Below are positions 13,034 to 17,197 of a stretch of 52,067 nucleotides of DNA, piece after piece. Source of the stretch: an uncultured Candidatus Saccharimonas sp. (GTDB lineage Bacteria; Patescibacteriota; Saccharimonadia; Saccharimonadales; Saccharimonadaceae); contig CAZHFQ010000001.1 of assembly GCA_964531915.1 (NCBI GenBank), forward strand, positions 1 to 52,067, written 5' to 3'. A program made the position numbers and the translations under genes. A model generated the notes under the pieces. It was not told the origin of the DNA and searched no databases. It was given only the letters and a program-made list of their open reading frames with translations. Numbering within the stretch: the stretch's first letter is position 1; the number at the start of each line of letters is the position of its first letter.

Positions 13034-13087
13034 ATGGGCGGTTGTGCCAGAAAGTCTTGTATTTTTTGGGGAGCCACAACCGTCCAT
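13034..13087. promoter_or_regulatory. Inverted repeat in front of the recombinase gene
   Basis: ATGGGCGGTTGTG (13034-13046) pairs with CACAACCGTCCAT (13075-13087) at 12 of 13 positions. A second pair is GGGCTCCCC (12991-12999) with GGGGAGCC (13068-13075). It ends 20 nt before the ATG at 13107. Confidence 0.35.
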
Positions 13088-13106
13088 TTTAAGTAGGAGA
13101 AGTTAT

Positions 13107-14576
13107 ATGAAAGCATTTTTAATAGCAAGAGTGTCCACCGATGAGCAGGCAAACTCACTCCCTGCACAAGTTTACAAACTTAAGGACTACGCTCTCCGTA
13201 ATGATTACAGCTACGAACTAACTGAGATAAAAGAAAGTGCCTATAAGGGCAGCCGCGAAGATTTTAAACTAATCATAGAAAAAATTAAGTCCTGTAGTGA
13301 ATTAGTTATTGTAGTATTCGATAAAGTTGATCGCTACACGCGCGATATTAGCTCAGACATCGTCAAGCAGCTCGAAACTTTATATCGTATGGGGAAAATT
13401 GAGCTTCACTTCCCATCAGACAACCTAACAATTACTAAAAACTCATCAGCTCCTGATTTGATGCGCCTAGGACTTGGTATGGTATTGGCAAAATATTACT
13501 CAGACGCAATAAGCGATAATGTAAAAAGGCGTAACGAACAAAAAAGACGCGATGGAGAATGGTGCGGTAGAGCGCCAATTGGTTACATTAATAAAGATAG
13601 GCCGGACGGTAAAAAATGGGTTGAGATTGATCCAATATACTCGCAAGCAGTCCGCGAAGCTTATGAATTATATGCGAGTGGCAATTCTTCATTACGCGAA
13701 ATCGCAAAAGAATGGAGTACCCAATGCGGGCACAAAGTAGGCTCTAGTAAAATAGAGCAAGTTCTCAAAAACCCATTCTATTACGGAGAAATGCGCATAA
13801 AAGGAGAGTTGTACCCCCATAAGTATGAGCGCCTAATAACCAGAGGCCTCTTCGAACAAGTTAAGGCAGTACGAGAGGGTTATTCCGTAAAGCCTCATCG
13901 TTGGGGCGGACTACCCTATTCATTTCGCGGTCTTATTTACTGTGCTGATTGTGGTTGTCGCATTACTTTCGAAAAAAAGAAAAAAGGTAAATATATTTAT
14001 GGGCATTGCACTCAAGCAAAAGGGAAACATAACGCGAAGTATGTGCCCGAAAATGAATTGATTAAACAGATGATGGTAATCTTCAAAAAGGTTCAGATAC
14101 CTGGATTGGCCTACCAACAGGTTAGCGAAGCCCTGCGTGCTTCTCATGAGGATAAAAAGCGCACATACCACGCTCAAGCGCGATCTATTGACACTGAAAT
14201 TAAAAAATATCAAACAAGGACAGAAAAGGTTTATGAAGATTATTTGGACGAGAAGATCTCCGAAGAGCTATATAACAAGAAGTTCGAGGAGTACCGATCA
14301 AAAGTTAAACTTCTTCAGGAACGCCGTTTAAATATCGAACTTACTGAAGATACTTACTACTCAAGTGTTTCCCATCTGTTAAATCTTGCAAAAGACGCAC
14401 CAAAGTTATTCATAAAGGCAAATCAAGAGCAAAAACGGTCAATGATCAATTTAGTACTTTCGAACTTACGGCTAGACGGTAATCAACTGAGGTGGGAATA
14501 CAAAAAGCCATTCGAAATGATGGCTTTTTGTAACAAATCTTCAAATTGGCTCCGGCGACTGGACTCGAACCAGTAA
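13107..14576 (+). CDS. Large serine recombinase (integrase)
   Basis: MKAFLIARVSTDEQ is the resolvase-type catalytic Ser motif, with DRYTRD, the recombinase domain (GRAPIGY) and a zinc ribbon (CADCGC...GHC) plus a coiled-coil C-terminus. An SD (AGGAGA) precedes ATG 13107, so the GTG 13044 extension in the track is unlikely. The last 30 nt overlap tRNA-Asn. Confidence 0.9.
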   Translation: MKAFLIARVSTDEQANSLPAQVYKLKDYALRNDYSYELTEIKESAYKGSREDFKLIIEKIKSCSELVIVVFDKVDRYTRDISSDIVKQLETLYRMGKIELHFPSDNLTITKNSSAPDLMRLGLGMVLAKYYSDAISDNVKRRNEQKRRDGEWCGRAPIGYINKDRPDGKKWVEIDPIYSQAVREAYELYASGNSSLREIAKEWSTQCGHKVGSSKIEQVLKNPFYYGEMRIKGELYPHKYERLITRGLFEQVKAVREGYSVKPHRWGGLPYSFRGLIYCADCGCRITFEKKKKGKYIYGHCTQAKGKHNAKYVPENELIKQMMVIFKKVQIPGLAYQQVSEALRASHEDKKRTYHAQARSIDTEIKKYQTRTEKVYEDYLDEKISEELYNKKFEEYRSKVKLLQERRLNIELTEDTYYSSVSHLLNLAKDAPKLFIKANQEQKRSMINLVLSNLRLDGNQLRWEYKKPFEMMAFCNKSSNWLRRLDSNQ

Positions 14577-14621
14577 CCTCGAAGTTAACAGCTTCTTGCT
14601 CCACCATTGAGCTACGCCGGA
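14547..14621 (-). tRNA. tRNA-Asn (anticodon GTT), CCA encoded
   Basis: Hand-folded cloverleaf: UCCGGCG-UA-GCUC-AAUGGUG-GAGC-A-AGAAG-CUGUUAA-CUUCG-AGGUU-ACUGG-UUCGAGU-CCAGU-CGCCGGA-G-CCA. It is 75 nt with a 7-bp acceptor stem, a canonical T-loop and a GUU anticodon. Confidence 0.9.
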
Positions 14622-14860
14622 ATAATTGTTTTTATGAACTCTCGCCCTCTACCTGATTTGAGACCTTTTTCTCTCTTCAGAGCTTCCGAACGAGTGGTAA
14701 CTAATTCTTCGTGTATTAGCTCCCATTCGCCAGGAAATCTTGATGTATATGATTTAAATGTATGATTATTATGCTTTATTAAACGTCTTTTTATATCATC
14801 GGTCTGACCAATGTAATACTTATTCGAAGTCTTATTGTAAATAACATACACGTGGTACAT
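14612..14860 (-). CDS. GIY-YIG nuclease superfamily protein (UPF0213/YhbQ-like, 82 aa)
   Basis: MYHVYVIYNKTSNKYYIGQTDDIKRRLIKHN...ALKREKGLKSGRGRE shows the GIY-YIG, R and E motifs. The ATG at 14860 is preceded by GGTGGAG. The TAG stop lies inside the tRNA (nt 8-10). Confidence 0.85.
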   Translation of the reverse strand: MYHVYVIYNKTSNKYYIGQTDDIKRRLIKHNNHTFKSYTSRFPGEWELIHEELVTTRSEALKREKGLKSGRGREFIKTIIPA

Positions 14861-14864
14861 ATTA

Positions 14865-14917
14865 TCTTGCTCCACCTTCGCCTTCGCTAGATAGCGAACG
14901 GCGAAGAGCTACGCCGG
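14865..14917 (-). repeat. Partial duplicate of the tRNA-Asn 5' portion (nt 2-13 and 17-28) interrupted by a 29-nt palindrome
   Basis: On the minus strand the sequence is CCGGCGTAGCTC-[TTCGCCGTTCGCTATCTAGCGAAGGCGAA]-GGTGGAGCAAGA. Both 12-mers are identical to the tRNA (14609-14620 and 14594-14605). Confidence 0.8.
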
Positions 14918-14942
14918 TCCGCTGTACAGCAGAACAATGGGT

Positions 14943-14971
14943 ATTATATCCCAAGACCCCTTGTAGGACAA
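14943..14971 (-). promoter_or_regulatory. Sigma70-like promoter upstream of the tRNA fragment/GIY-YIG/tRNA unit
   Basis: The minus strand reads TTGTCC, a 17-nt spacer, then TATAAT. It lies ~25 nt upstream of the duplicated tRNA 5' fragment. Confidence 0.5.
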
Positions 14972-14997
14972 CTCTGTTTATAGAAGGCAATGATTTA

Positions 14998-15333
14998 CTA
15001 AGACTTTTTGCCAAACATCGACATTAGTTTGCCAAAGAATCCAGATGGTTTTGGCTGTTCAGCTGCAGCCGGAGCTGTTTGGATTGGCTGCGGTTGCTCG
15101 TCAGCAACTGGTGGCTGGAAGGTTGCTACTGGCTGTGGTGGAATTGGTTCTGTTGAAACCGCTGGCTCTGCAGGCTGTGGATCGGATTGCGGTTGAGAAA
15201 ACCCGTCTACCATTGGCGCCGCTGGCTCTGTGGCCATCGAGTCTTGTGATGTTGGTGGTTCTGGTATTGGTGTTACTGGTGGTGGCGTTGCCCCCATGTT
15301 GTTTTCAGGAACGTCTTCATTGTTTGGTTGCAT
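14998..15333 (-). CDS. Pro/Gln-rich low-complexity hypothetical protein
   Basis: A 111-aa ORF that is visibly more GC-rich than its surroundings, with a C-terminal FFGKLMSMFGKKS. Both plus-strand ORFs across it look like composition artefacts. Confidence 0.45.
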   Translation of the reverse strand: MQPNNEDVPENNMGATPPPVTPIPEPPTSQDSMATEPAAPMVDGFSQPQSDPQPAEPAVSTEPIPPQPVATFQPPVADEQPQPIQTAPAAAEQPKPSGFFGKLMSMFGKKS

Positions 15334-15417: not shown

Positions 15418-15867
15418 CTAGGAAATGTTACTAGATTTTAGATAATCTATGAGCCGCGTTTTCATAGCCACATGCGCCCCGTCTATCCCCAGAATTTTCA
15501 AAGCCCCGATTAAAACATAAAGTTCATCGAGCGTTTCTTGATCATAAGCTTGTTCCAGAGCATTAAATTTTCTAGTAACAGCATTAACTATCCACTTTTC
15601 TTGTGCTGGTGTTGGGCCTTTACGGACAGGGGAATCGTCAAGACGCGTGGTTACAACCTCAAGAGACCTAGCGGAACGATCCCGTTTTTGCAAATAACCC
15701 TTTGCCATTAGCCCATCAATATGAACCGCAACGGTTGAGACTGACTTATAACCTAAGGCTCGCATTATTTCACGATAACTCGGTCCATAGCCATGCCCCT
15801 GTATAAAGCCATCAACAAAGTTTAAAAGTTCTCTTTGGCGTTTACTTGATCGTTCTTTATTCATCAT
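15418..15867 (-). CDS. LexA-N-terminal-type winged-helix regulator lacking the S24 peptidase domain
   Basis: SKRQRELLNFVDGFIQGHGYGPSYREIMRALGYKSVSTVAVHIDGLMAKGYLQKR matches the LexA DNA-binding domain. No Ala-Gly/Ser-Lys autocleavage module follows. The start ATGATG overlaps the stop of the upstream gene. Confidence 0.7.
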   Translation of the reverse strand: MMNKERSSKRQRELLNFVDGFIQGHGYGPSYREIMRALGYKSVSTVAVHIDGLMAKGYLQKRDRSARSLEVVTTRLDDSPVRKGPTPAQEKWIVNAVTRKFNALEQAYDQETLDELYVLIGALKILGIDGAHVAMKTRLIDYLKSSNIS

Positions 15868-17197
15868 GAGTCCTTCGCCCTGTAGGGGCACCGAGTGCAA
15901 CTGCGGCTAATCCCCACCAGATTATTGAAACCGCATCATCAGTCCAAACTGGTAATAATATACCAATTATAGCAAGCCCAATACCACCTGCAAATATACC
16001 TAATGCCAGCCAGTCACGCCTCAGACTCCACAAGCCAAGTAATATTGACACAAATATATACATAAATATTGCTAAACCTAGCCAGCCAATCTCATGGTTA
16101 ATAAATAAATATTGATTTTCGATTATCACTGCCTTATTTCCGATTATTGAAGCCGAGCCAGTACTACCAATACCACCGCCTAATGGCTGGTGAATTAAAT
16201 GATTGAAGCCATCATCAAGTGAGCTTGCATGGCCTTCGTTCGAACTTATACTGCTGCCACCAGATGGATTTTCATGCAATATAACGTTTGATATAAAAGA
16301 CGTATCACGGGCTAAAAACAGTCCACCAAACACTAAAATCATCAAAATACCGATAGTTATCCACTTTTCTGTGGATAACTTGCGCCAAGTTGTCACCGCT
16401 AACACTATAGATATTGAAATAGCGGTTCCGATCAATGCACTTCGCGAATAACTAGCCCATAATGCCACCAGCCCACCAGCTGACAAGATAGCGACAATAA
16501 TCAGTTGCCATTTATCTTCGCTGTACAGCGAATTAATTTTTTTCTTTGCGATTGCAGCAACTAATATTGTCAGCACTATCCCAGCATATGCCCCCAACGG
16601 ATTCGGCCCTCTAAAAGTACCGTTTATCCGAATAAAGGCTGGGTTTTTATCAATGGTTAAATATGGGCTAATTGTGTCTAGGTTATAACCGATACATTTC
16701 AAAACATCATTTGGTAAAATAAATACTTGCATCAAAGCGAAGATTAACGCGATCAGCGCCCCAGCAATACCTACCGTAATAAACAATTTTCTTTGGGCTG
16801 GGAAAAGTCGAAGTGCAATATAAACCAAACCAAAAAATAGTAAATAGCGTAAATCAATCGCCAGACCCGCAGCCCAAGCAGTCCATCCTTGACTCATATA
16901 AAATGACAAAACTAGATGCAGTGCAGCATAAATAACAATTGCAATGATTGTTGGACTTTGCAATATCTTGAACTTCCTATTTTTATAAATCAAAAATAAC
17001 GCCATAATCCCAGCGACTAGCATCATAATTTCTTTCCAAGATTTAATCAGCAACTCATAATTTGGCCATAAAGTACTAAACCCAACACTTAAAGGTGTAT
17101 GTAAAATAACCCCACCGAATATTACCAGCAAAATTGTTATGTAAATTTTCCCTGCCAACCCTAAAGATTCTGACTTATGTATTTTACTACCTACCAT
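15857..17197 (-). CDS. O-antigen ligase/polymerase-like (Wzy_C) polytopic membrane protein
   Basis: It has about 10-12 hydrophobic helices and the typical SYSRSALIG loop region. Confidence 0.7.
   Translation of the reverse strand: MVGSKIHKSESLGLAGKIYITILLVIFGGVILHTPLSVGFSTLWPNYELLIKSWKEIMMLVAGIMALFLIYKNRKFKILQSPTIIAIVIYAALHLVLSFYMSQGWTAWAAGLAIDLRYLLFFGLVYIALRLFPAQRKLFITVGIAGALIALIFALMQVFILPNDVLKCIGYNLDTISPYLTIDKNPAFIRINGTFRGPNPLGAYAGIVLTILVAAIAKKKINSLYSEDKWQLIIVAILSAGGLVALWASYSRSALIGTAISISIVLAVTTWRKLSTEKWITIGILMILVFGGLFLARDTSFISNVILHENPSGGSSISSNEGHASSLDDGFNHLIHQPLGGGIGSTGSASIIGNKAVIIENQYLFINHEIGWLGLAIFMYIFVSILLGLWSLRRDWLALGIFAGGIGLAIIGILLPVWTDDAVSIIWWGLAAVALGAPTGRRTHDE

Follow-up and report, generated by a model that had tools for sequence, protein, structure and literature searches.

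In the window, the 52,067-nt stretch of Candidatus Saccharimonas DNA that we analyzed, a gene for an 82-aa GIY-YIG protein lies between a duplicated fragment of the tRNA-Asn 5' part and the complete tRNA gene, and the same protein precedes tRNA-Asn in 80 Patescibacteria/CPR loci. We regard it as fairly probable that the window cassette belongs to a family of small selfish cassettes occupying the 5' half of tRNA-Asn in CPR, and the evidence on balance favors the view that the cassette is a mobile, homing-type selfish element. Its anatomy, the polarity of its insertion, its conservation across the family, its patchy occurrence, and the discordance between cassettes and their flanks can be read from the sequences themselves. 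Literature searches on GIY-YIG proteins in connection with tRNA-Asn or Patescibacteria, on UPF0213, and on the palindrome sequence returned no description of the arrangement, and the family is apparently undescribed.

Anatomy of the tRNA-Asn locus

The order on the minus strand is promoter, relic 5' part, GIY-YIG ORF, and complete tRNA-Asn. The features are as follows.

14943..14971, minus: promoter TTGTCC-17 nt-TATAAT, the single promoter-like site within 14400-15100
14918..14933, minus: palindrome 1, TCTGCTGTACAGCGGA, between promoter and relic, with one G.U-type wobble on the sense strand
14906..14917, minus: relic of tRNA-Asn nt 2-13, CCGGCGTAGCTC, exact duplicate of 14609-14620
14877..14905, minus: palindrome 2, nested, 29 nt, TTCGCC-G-[TTCGCTATCTAGCGAA]-GGCGAA (outer TTCGCC..GGCGAA, inner TTCGCTATCTAGCGAA)
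14865..14876, minus: relic of tRNA-Asn nt 17-28, GGTGGAGCAAGA, exact duplicate of 14594-14605
14612..14860, minus: GIY-YIG ORF, 82 aa, ATG at 14860, TAG at 14612-14614, with a Pfam match
14547..14621, minus: complete tRNA-Asn(GTT), the sole tRNA that ARAGORN finds in the window; 64 bits on the Rfam tRNA model
14499..14532, minus: terminator-like hairpin plus T run, 3' of the tRNA (13-nt perfect inverted repeat I1)
13044-14576, plus: large serine recombinase gene, converging on the tRNA and overlapping its 3' end by 30 nt
16517..16532, no strand assigned: extra family palindrome TTCGCTGTACAGCGAA, an exact 16-mer inside a Wzy_C-like CDS (15857-17197, minus)

This arrangement bears out what the original prediction had read from the window. 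The two 12-nt blocks of the tRNA 5' part that it saw duplicated upstream are exact matches, the 29-nt palindrome does lie between them, the 82-aa ORF does end with its TAG at tRNA nt 8-10, and the near-consensus promoter stands ahead of the fragment, no second such site being found in 14400-15100. The blocks might have proved to be a generic dispersed repeat. However, CCGGCGTAGCTC has just two exact copies in the 52 kb (14609-14620 and 14906-14917), where 0.05 would be expected at no more than one mismatch; neither block occurs outside the tRNA and the fragment, which rules out a chance or dispersed repeat. Both tRNA copies were also scored on Rfam model RF00005 (gathering score, 29): the downstream copy reaches 64 bits, and the covariance search gave zero matches at E<=10 for the upstream relic.

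The ORF ends in the codons ATT-CCG-GCG and the stop TAG, which together are tRNA-Asn nt 1-10. At its other end, the GGTGGAG of the relic D-arm lies 9 nt upstream of the ATG and, judging by its sequence, can act as a Shine-Dalgarno sequence. The TTGTCC/TATAAT site appears to be the native tRNA-Asn promoter, which would now drive the relic, the ORF, and, presumably, the tRNA. Palindrome 2 takes the place of D-loop nt 14-16 (AAT) of the relic copy and forms a stable hairpin when folded. Palindrome 1, which the original prediction had missed, stands in place of 3 nt (leader -2, leader -1, and tRNA nt 1) when compared with uninserted promoter-tRNA junctions, and the same position is also filled in loci L002-L006 and L163.

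The nuclease, its palindrome, and their distribution in CPR

The 82-aa protein matches PF01541 (GIY-YIG) over residues 1-69 with 59.1 bits against a cut-off of 22.6, and nearly all of its 421 homologues are also 82 aa long. Y5, Y16, G18, and E64 are invariant in 89 sequences and R26 nearly so (at least 90%); by analogy, Y5, Y16, R26, and E64 would have catalytic roles. An invariant Asn after E64 is absent across the aligned sequences. The AF2 model (pLDDT 95; 95.3) retrieved 1zg2, the Slx1 structures 6seh, 7cq3, and 4xlg (TMq, 0.63 to 0.70), and I-TevI 1ln0 (TMq, 0.61) in Foldseek, and a profile search of the PDB, with modest E-values, gave 1ywl (3.6e-5), 1zg2 (1.8e-4), and I-TevI (5e-3). The two rankings agree in placing UPF0213 and the Slx1 nuclease domain closest, and the protein is accordingly predicted to be a minimal stand-alone Slx1-like/UPF0213 GIY-YIG nuclease, consisting of the catalytic core alone and lacking a separate DNA-binding domain. 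The substitution pattern (dN/dS, ~0.1; 0.08 to 0.17) shows purifying selection on the gene; dS exceeds 1 even between the closest carriers, and synonymous sites are saturated. An anti-phage defense gene was considered and dropped, PADLOC and PHROGs giving weak GIY-motif matches only. A phage origin fared no better: one distant relative (48% identity) was found at the end of one viral contig, and the fragment-plus-palindrome pattern had no match in the viral contigs searched.

Across the 80 loci, ARAGORN calls a tRNA-Asn just 3' of the gene in 60. The stop codon coincides with tRNA nt 8-10 in 49/80; in 6 loci, it takes up nt 8-10 of a fragment that bears the palindrome, and in 8 it lies elsewhere within the tRNA. 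The overlap between ORF and tRNA is not obligatory, since the stop is upstream of the tRNA in 13/80. The C-terminal residues (IP-A/E/G/R/L/T) vary in step with the acceptor-stem sequence, and in L015, L060, and L071, whose tRNA has G9 (TGG), the ORF continues past this point. A perfect upstream copy of nt 2-13 of the local tRNA is present in ~57/80 loci, lineage differences following the tRNA; mismatched relic fragments occur in L014, L061, and L073. The original prediction had allowed for relatives with the gene and no duplication at all; nearly all carriers have the duplication. Many CPR lineages also have group I introns (60 to 84 bits) in tRNA-Asn, at some loci only, located between anticodon nt 35 and 36. 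Intron-bearing tRNA copies are missed by tRNA finders, and several metagenome assemblies have contigs that end at the cassette repeats; both points matter for the annotation of CPR genomes. What could not be seen from the window by itself is that the cassette has relatives throughout CPR, that the palindrome is a conserved part which is also found elsewhere, and that the recombinase is an independent element.

A 16-nt palindrome stands upstream of the gene in 77/81 loci, in the form TCCGCC-N4-GGCGGA or, in Saccharimonadales, TTCGCT-GTAC-AGCGAA, and its stem shows compensatory changes at 3/6 pairs. In most loci, exactly 3 nt of the local tRNA 5' copy give way to it (nt 14-16 in ~35 loci and nt 9-11 in 7), and 16-nt homologues of palindrome 2 occupy the position of the latter in ~45 loci; the D-loop of the intact tRNAs is free of the palindrome. 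A -10 box follows it, ahead of the ATG, in 26/77 loci, at exactly 6 nt from the ATG in 16 of these 26. It is nested in the loop of an earlier copy in the window, L002, L006, L043, and L079, and redundant tRNA-Asn copies contain it in their loops: L009 in the D-loop and anticodon loop, L035 in the D-loop and T-arm, and L202 in the anticodon loop. It is also present within group I introns (L072 and L034). The TTCGCTGTACAGCGAA copy in the Wzy_C-like CDS amounts to a 4-aa insertion (..INSLYSED..) that has no counterpart in 19/19 aligned orthologues, the gap lying in or next to that loop. The 16-nt palindrome has the character of an insertion, also within a coding sequence, and replaces 3 to 4 nt with no target-site duplication. 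Sequence that lacks the gene rarely has it (801 kb gave 6 copies, of which the two carrier loci account for 4), none was found within 10 kb on either side of the cassette in three further genomes (81 kb), and the 52-kb window has one non-cassette copy. An abundant REP-like repeat is ruled out because the palindrome is so rare outside cassettes. A role as an intrinsic terminator is unlikely as well: the palindrome lacks a T run behind it, and the sole promoter of the window is separated from the tRNA by two copies.

Empty sites and competing explanations

For comparison, we used 120 metagenome loci with the same intact tRNA, 109 of which have at least 300 nt upstream. The GIY-YIG gene is present in 3 of these 109 relatives (~3%) and absent from 106, and the comparison bears out the proposal that a small cassette entered the 5' half of tRNA-Asn, brought a replacement 5' part, and left the original one at the native promoter. 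The insertion point had been placed near nt 28; its position in the 5' half holds, but the D-loop (nt 13/14) is an equally valid description of the point itself. The empty relatives keep the same type of promoter 9 to 11 nt ahead of tRNA nt 1, as in the uninserted L085, L087, L114, and L193, where the promoter directly precedes an intact tRNA-Asn. The closest of them have the promoter sequence and upstream gene order of the window; in Saccharibacteria, the chromosomal position is conserved, with an upstream gene order common to uninserted loci. ORF-less footprints are seen in 4 to 5 loci among the relatives. An occupied/empty allele pair within one species was not found among the loci compared.

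Several observations point to mobility. In L076, an ectopic cassette precedes tRNA-Thr(CGT) and is accompanied by a duplicated tRNA-Thr 5' part; tandem arrays in L062 and L012 would fit re-insertion, and L023 has a pseudogene. Promoter and cassette are 100% identical over 357 nt between L003 and L004, whose upstream genes are 84% identical; this discordance would be an indirect hint that the enzyme cuts the empty allele and is copied in by repair, and it could in principle be an assembly chimera, as the L004 contig stops 3 nt past the ORF. In L016 and L021, the ORFs are 90% identical and the flanks unalignable, and in L022 and L028, the ORFs are 85.5% and the flank 95% identical. The correlation between protein identity and tRNA identity is positive but weak (rho, 0.24), and because of this and of the dS above 1, much of the history could be vertical descent plus loss.

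Taken further, such descent would make the gene a domesticated host gene in an ancient vertical CPR operon, serving for instance tRNA-Asn metabolism or DNA repair and mostly lost among lineages, with relic and hairpin as a regulatory leader. The CPR-wide distribution, the strong purifying selection, the saturated synonymous sites, the positive correlation of protein and tRNA identity, and the conserved position in Saccharibacteria would all suit such a gene, but we consider it quite improbable given that only ~3% of relatives with the same tRNA are carriers, that tandem arrays, ORF-less footprints, a pseudogene, and an ectopic copy at tRNA-Thr exist, and that cassette and flank identities are discordant. 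The leader also does not appear to be held by a pairing constraint: when the entire precursor is folded, the structure of lowest energy has the relic acceptor strand paired with the 3' end of the tRNA, but the ensemble frequency of this structure is negligible, and the mismatches in L014, L061, and L073 break the pairing, so that retention of the relic through pairing with the tRNA 3' acceptor strand is not supported. The same fold, and the group I introns in many CPR tRNA-Asn genes, might be taken to indicate an element acting at the RNA level, the ORF and second 5' part forming an intron or split tRNA that is removed or rearranged by splicing. This is most improbable: the interval is fully coding and matches no ribozyme family (RF00028, group I intron, has no match in window 14300-15200 at E<=10), splicing is not needed for the downstream tRNA, which is already complete, the relic is short of 3 D-loop nt, and the group I introns lie elsewhere (nt 35/36) and at some loci only. 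We give next to no credence to the duplication being an attachment-site scar of the adjacent serine-recombinase element. tRNA genes are classical integration sites, and the recombinase ORF converges on this one and overlaps it by 30 nt; however, it does so from the 3' side, the duplicated part is the 5' one, and the window has no repeated 3' tRNA fragment. Recombinase homologues are found at tRNA-Asn in 14 metagenome loci with no GIY-YIG gene in their sequence and in 15/80 carriers, and L266 and L267 are 99.97% identical over cassette and tRNA with the recombinase island in L266 only. The recombinase is thus distributed independently of the cassette, and the scar was rejected.

Another alternative, which we think rather unlikely, shifts the weight to the palindrome: the 16-nt palindrome itself would be mobile, mobilized by the Slx1-like structure-specific nuclease via hairpin or cruciform DNA, and the duplicated 5' part would be a by-product of repair once the palindrome had entered the D-loop of an essential single-copy tRNA, only events that supply a new 5' part surviving. 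Its replacement of 3 nt, its nesting in its own loop, its presence in loops of redundant tRNA-Asn copies and in group I introns, the 4-aa CDS insertion with no counterpart in 19 orthologues, its rarity where the gene is absent, the compensatory changes at 3/6 pairs, and the structure-specific Slx1 enzymes as nearest folds are all consistent with this. However, the palindrome is scarce outside the cassette even in carriers (0 in 81 kb; 1 in 52 kb), no target consensus is evident at non-tRNA sites, the counts behind the association are small, and we know of no GIY-YIG enzyme that inserts DNA. With some reserve, one may entertain nuclease and palindrome as a new type of minimal two-part mobile system, the enzyme acting on hairpin-forming DNA (the tRNA D-arm, the palindrome's loop, and redundant tRNA loops); as a result, the palindrome would be inserted from a template and displace 3 nt, and the 5'-duplicated tRNA-Asn cassette would be the form that survives in an essential single-copy gene. 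If so, this would be the first function for bacterial UPF0213/Slx1-like proteins.

Proposed mechanism and relation to known systems

Returning to the homing-type selfish element that we favor, we infer from the sequences a nuclease target, a transcript structure, a coupling to RNase P, and a palindrome function. The cassette would consist of the 16-nt palindrome, a short spacer that in many lineages holds its own putative -10 box 6 nt before the ATG, the 82-aa nuclease gene, and a replacement tRNA 5' part. Insertion would strand the original 5' part, broken by the palindrome, at the native promoter, and the only tRNA-Asn would stay intact because its original 3' part is now continuous with the replacement 5' part. 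For its last codons the ORF would use tRNA nt 1-7, and for its stop U8-A9-G10. In the window, the unit would be one RNA, most likely from the old tRNA promoter, with the duplicated D-arm GGTGGAG as ribosome-binding site; RNase P would free the tRNA by a cut that takes the stop codon off the mRNA. Such co-transcription and loss of the stop are both compatible with the sequence, in which 14400-15100 has the one promoter-like site. Each transcript would then give protein or tRNA, so that nuclease expression stays low. Spread and persistence may occur via nuclease-stimulated, homing-like recombination at the tRNA D-arm, with frequent loss through recombination between the direct repeats and movement between related genomes. 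Site-specific homing is a tentative part of this reading, as the protein is a catalytic domain devoid of a sequence-specific DNA-binding domain. For the palindrome, we prefer a role in disabling the relic target copy and, as an RNA hairpin, in damping read-through expression, by analogy with phage homing endonucleases that are regulated by hairpins; regulation or disabling alone would not account for the conservation of its sequence or for its copies outside the cassette. Nor does this reading account for the way in which the 5' part of the target comes to be duplicated, an event that recurs at tRNA-Thr.

If the proposal is right, selfish genes have a previously unseen means of residing in an essential single-copy gene: nesting in the 5' half of a tRNA, repairing the damage by a carried copy, and borrowing U8-A9-G10 as stop, with protein synthesis and tRNA maturation mutually exclusive on each transcript. 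U8-A9-G10 of tRNA is near-universal. The locus would also offer a candidate substrate for the large family of stand-alone bacterial Slx1-like GIY-YIG proteins, and it would make CPR tRNA-Asn a triple hotspot, with the 5' cassette, the anticodon-loop group I intron, and the 3' serine-recombinase island.

GC-rich palindromes in small AT-rich genomes are familiar from Rickettsia palindromic elements, yeast mitochondrial GC clusters, and REP/RAYT systems, and they can insert into RNA genes and, in frame, into protein genes. The palindrome described here differs in being only 16 nt long, in having very few copies, and in its link to a GIY-YIG gene, where those elements have a HUH transposase or no enzyme; of the traits of MITEs and RPEs, insertion polymorphism is present, but many dispersed copies and target-site duplication are absent. 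Group I introns with homing genes in tRNA anticodon loops resemble the cassette in being selfish, in preserving tRNA function, and in occupying the same CPR tRNA-Asn genes; unlike them, the cassette has no ribozyme, relies on a DNA-level 5' duplication instead of splicing, and lies in the 5' half, not the anticodon loop. The UPF0213/Slx1-like proteins BH0048 (1zg2) and EF2693 (1ywl) (PMC1564403) have the same minimal fold and size and likewise no invariant C-terminal Asn. Proteins of this type are encoded by ordinary chromosomal genes, in contrast to the cassette, and tRNA overlap, duplication, or a palindrome is not reported for them in the sources searched.

As in integrase-borne tRNA islands, an element within a tRNA gene carries the displaced part and leaves a fragment as a direct repeat, here of nt 2-13 and 17-28. 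In contrast to such islands, the 5' rather than the 3' part is duplicated, the element is ~0.35 kb and has no integrase, and its ORF reads into the tRNA; a serine-recombinase island of the classical type is present 3' of this tRNA, independent of the cassette.

The closest parallels may be found among homing endonucleases. SegB lies in the T4 tRNA gene cluster (PMC2988022, which cites Brok-Volchanskaya et al. 2008). With SegB and other T-even GIY-YIG enzymes, the cassette shares a nuclease gene among tRNA genes, a selfish and patchy occurrence, inheritance with the flanking tRNA, and, on the reading proposed here, an expression damped by hairpins and promoter placement. Translation of T4 segB is regulated by a hairpin, and free-standing GIY-YIG genes lie between tRNA genes (PMC2988022). 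The Seg proteins, however, are two-domain proteins of ~200 aa or more with a DNA-binding domain, as against the 82-aa Slx1-like core found here, and their phage-borne genes lie between genes with no tRNA overlap, target duplication, or palindrome, whereas the cassette resides in a cellular CPR chromosome. The tethered DNA-binding domain of classical homing endonucleases (I-TevI and Seg) is absent here. The palindrome breaks the relic copy of the tRNA and the downstream copy is intact; a target wholly within the tRNA would thus survive insertion, and classical 'disrupt the target' immunity would probably not apply. What the cassette does have in common with the classical homing endonucleases is presence/absence polymorphism at one site, with 3/109 relatives occupied and the same site used in 80 loci.

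Locus layout and polarity of insertion

The original prediction proposed a small cassette (GIY-YIG ORF and replacement tRNA 5' part) that had entered the 5' half of a tRNA-Asn gene and left a promoter-proximal relic fragment. Its account of promoter, 12-mer copies, 29-nt palindrome, ORF, and tRNA proved accurate, the sole part overlooked being a 16-nt palindrome ahead of the relic fragment.

Features of the tRNA-Asn locus in the window
14971-14943, minus: promoter TTGTCC-17-TATAAT, preceding the relic fragment
14933-14918, minus: 16-nt palindrome TCTGCTGTACAGCGGA, between promoter and relic fragment
14917-14906, minus: CCGGCGTAGCTC, copy of tRNA nt 2-13
14905-14877, minus: 29-nt nested palindrome
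14876-14865, minus: GGTGGAGCAAGA, copy of tRNA nt 17-28, then TAAT before the ORF
ATG 14860 to TAG 14614-14612, minus: 82-aa ORF, GIY-YIG domain (59 bits)
14621-14547, minus: complete tRNA-Asn(GTT), Infernal 64 bits, followed by a terminator-like hairpin

Both 12-mers occur at only two sites each in the 52-kb window, the relic fragment and the tRNA, and nt 1-10 of the tRNA form the last three codons and the stop of the ORF. Scored like the full tRNA, as had been proposed, the relic fragment gave no Infernal tRNA match, and no promoter-like site other than TTGTCC-17-TATAAT was found near the locus in the window. A 111-aa proline/glutamine-rich ORF (14998-15333, minus) with no Pfam family separates the LexA-like gene from the tRNA promoter; the matching interval is just ~120 nt in some uninserted relatives (locus L165), and a similar stretch occurs in L085.

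A metagenome scan with the intact D-arm/anticodon arm of the window tRNA as the query returned 120 loci. Upstream sequence of 300 nt or more was available for 109, and three of these had the GIY-YIG gene (L090, L131, and L163). Four or five were ORF-less footprints, and the remainder carried TTGAC-N17-TATAAT placed 9-11 nt before tRNA nt 1. The closest uninserted loci have the promoter sequence and the upstream Wzy_C-like and LexA-like genes in common with the window. Hence, the promoter-proximal fragment is the original 5' part, and the insertion comprises the ORF plus a second tRNA 5' part. The proposed polarity is thus borne out by relatives in which the promoter directly precedes an intact tRNA. 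The footprints L095, L117, L135, and L175, in which promoter and tRNA nt 1-12 are followed by a hairpin that differs or is degenerate, then by a short spacer containing a -10-like box, and finally by an intact tRNA, are probably decayed cassettes.

A cassette family and its conserved parts

The arrangement is a family and not a one-off. A protein search gave 421 homologues of the 82-aa protein, nearly all exactly 82 aa long and 54-84% identical, and wherever the source names them they are Saccharibacteria or Patescibacteria proteins. A scan of genomes yielded 80 loci. By record title these span many lineages of the candidate phyla radiation (CPR), among others Saccharibacteria, Uhr-, Moran-, Berkel-, Doudna-, Nomura-, Davies-, and Levybacteria, Microgenomates, and WWE3, although a few titles name bins outside the CPR (Gammaproteobacteria or Bdellovibrionales, for example). 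ARAGORN placed tRNA-Asn(GTT) immediately 3' of the gene in 60 of the 80; the loci lacking this call are mostly contig ends or have a tRNA-Asn split after anticodon nt 35.

Two further parts of the layout are conserved, the upstream fragment and the palindrome. In ~57 of 80 loci, nt 2-13 of the local tRNA recur without mismatch ~40-90 nt before the ATG, and the acceptor-stem sequence of this copy varies by lineage as that of the tRNA does. The 16-nt palindrome is found in 77 of 81 loci, as TCCGCC-N4-GGCGGA in most CPR lineages and in TCCGCT-, TTCGCT-, or TCTGCT-type forms in Saccharibacteria, with 100% stem pairing and compensatory changes at three of six pairs. It takes the place of exactly 3 nt, either D-loop nt 14-16 (~35 loci) or nt 9-11 (seven loci), and in several loci, the window among them, it is nested within the loop of an earlier palindrome.

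The ORF mostly ends inside the tRNA. Its C-terminal residues vary with the acceptor-stem sequence; where the tRNA has G9, the ORF continues through.

Position of the ORF stop in the 80 loci
49/80: TAG at tRNA nt 8-10
6/80: TAG at nt 8-10 of a palindrome-bearing 5' fragment
4/80: tRNA nt 19-21
4/80: tRNA nt 35-38
13/80: upstream of the tRNA
1/80: early stop (pseudogene)
3/80: other, or no tRNA

Of 77 loci, 26 have a -10 box between palindrome and ATG. The distance from box to ATG is exactly 6 nt in 16 of them, suggesting that the GIY-YIG mRNA is leaderless there (loci with such a -10-like box include L010, L012, L014, L024, L030, L035, L037, L045, L049, L050, and L056). Lacking this box, the gene in the window must presumably depend on the original tRNA promoter together with the duplicated D-arm GGTGGAG. 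Our readings of how the transcript is built and coupled to RNase P, of what the nuclease recognizes, and of how the duplication arises are inferences.

Outside the cassette the palindrome is rare: 801 kb made up mostly of uninserted loci contained six copies, of which four lie in L090 and L163, the two carriers with the form counted there; none was found within ±10 kb of three other cassettes. It occurs in loops of redundant tRNA-Asn copies 3' of the functional gene (L009 and L035), in a tRNA-like sequence on viral contig L202, and inside group I introns (L072 and L034). At 16517-16532 of the window an exact copy, TTCGCTGTACAGCGAA, adds four residues in a loop of the Wzy_C-like membrane protein (CDS 15857-17197, minus), an insertion absent from 19/19 orthologues in genomes without the cassette within the sequence compared. 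By this pattern, the palindrome acts like an insertion linked to the cassette. Degenerate extra tRNA-Asn copies 3' of the functional gene (L009, 2870-2960; L035, ~2850-2950; L075, 2880-3080; L202, 245-329) bear it in the D-loop, anticodon loop, or T-arm, the L202 copy being miscalled tRNA-Cys by ARAGORN. The more novel reading is that the palindrome may be a substrate of the Slx1-like nuclease. We prefer to see it as a cis element that would disable the relic copy and damp read-through expression, as hairpins damp expression of T4 segB and I-TevI (PMC2988022).

Evidence for mobility, and other elements at the same tRNA

Several observations point to a selfish mobile element. The cassette is patchily distributed among relatives. 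In locus L076 (2450-2810) it precedes tRNA-Thr(CGT), with the tRNA-Thr 5' part duplicated, and since tRNA-Thr resembles tRNA-Asn mainly in the D-arm, this points to the D-arm as the site recognized; the L076 ORF, in a frame that differs from that of the usual TAG, stops at a TAA in the anticodon loop. Tandem arrays (L062 and L012), a pseudogene (L023), and fragment-only units were also found, in addition to the ORF-less footprints. The ORF is under strong purifying selection (dN/dS, 0.08-0.17). The histories of cassette and flanks disagree: L003 and L004 show 100% identity over the 357 nt that reach from -35 box to ORF end, with upstream genes at 84%, L016 and L021 have 90% identical ORFs in unalignable flanks, and L022 and L028 show 85.5% identity in the ORF versus 95% in the flanks. 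Most carriers are separated by a dS of >1, and protein identity climbs weakly with tRNA identity (rho, 0.24), which argues against recent long-range transfer; the family is thus old, and it would move mainly among relatives or be lost frequently. An empty allele would be regained if the direct repeats recombined. Repeated tRNA segments and cassettes in tandem are expected to break short-read assemblies, which would explain contigs that end a few to ~100 nt past the ORF (L004, L012, L018, L020, L027, L044, L054, L059, and L063) and runs of N at that point (L052 and L062).

Other elements use the same tRNA. A large serine recombinase gene with Resolvase, Recombinase, and Zn_ribbon_recom domains (13044-14576, plus) converges on it, its last ~30 nt antisense to the tRNA 3' end (C terminus ..NWLRRLDSNQ). 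Homologues end at the same point in 15 of 80 carrier loci and 14 of 120 others (L161, L101, L097, L124, L098, L173, and L266 among them). Across cassette and tRNA, L266 and L267 share 99.97% identity, yet the recombinase island is present in L266 only. The island is a separate element using the tRNA 3' end, and the duplication is not an attachment-site scar of the recombinase, which is found with or without the cassette and is polymorphic in L266/L267. In many CPR lineages tRNA-Asn(GTT) is interrupted between anticodon nt 35 and 36, and Rfam RF00028 (60-84 bits) marks the insertion as a group I intron in eight scanned loci (L023, L026, L028, L034, L051, L053, L057, and L081), whose tRNA-Asn genes ARAGORN overlooks; the same split is seen in L024, L044, L062, and L072, and intron ORFs in L024 and L026 look HNH-like by eye. 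The cassette itself cannot be read as an intron or split tRNA: the downstream tRNA is complete, and no ribozyme was detected. A domesticated host operon is possible, although it fits poorly with 3% occupancy, arrays, footprints, and an ectopic copy.

The protein and comparison with known systems

The AlphaFold model of the 82-aa protein is confident (pLDDT, 95). By sequence and fold, its nearest matches are stand-alone bacterial UPF0213 proteins (1zg2 and 1ywl) and the nuclease domain of the structure-specific endonuclease Slx1, with I-TevI matching less well (PMC1564403). Classical GIY-YIG homing endonucleases have their own DNA-binding domain, whereas the cassette protein has none and so lacks one of their defining features. 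Hence, the cassette would work like a homing cassette, yet we do not assign its protein to the homing endonuclease family.

No prior description of the arrangement, palindrome string included, was found in full-text searches of the literature. We rate the cassette as a variant of a known theme, that of selfish nuclease cassettes lodged within or beside tRNA genes, in which the 5'-part duplication, the stop codon within the tRNA, the minimal Slx1-like enzyme, and the linked 16-nt palindrome are unusual.
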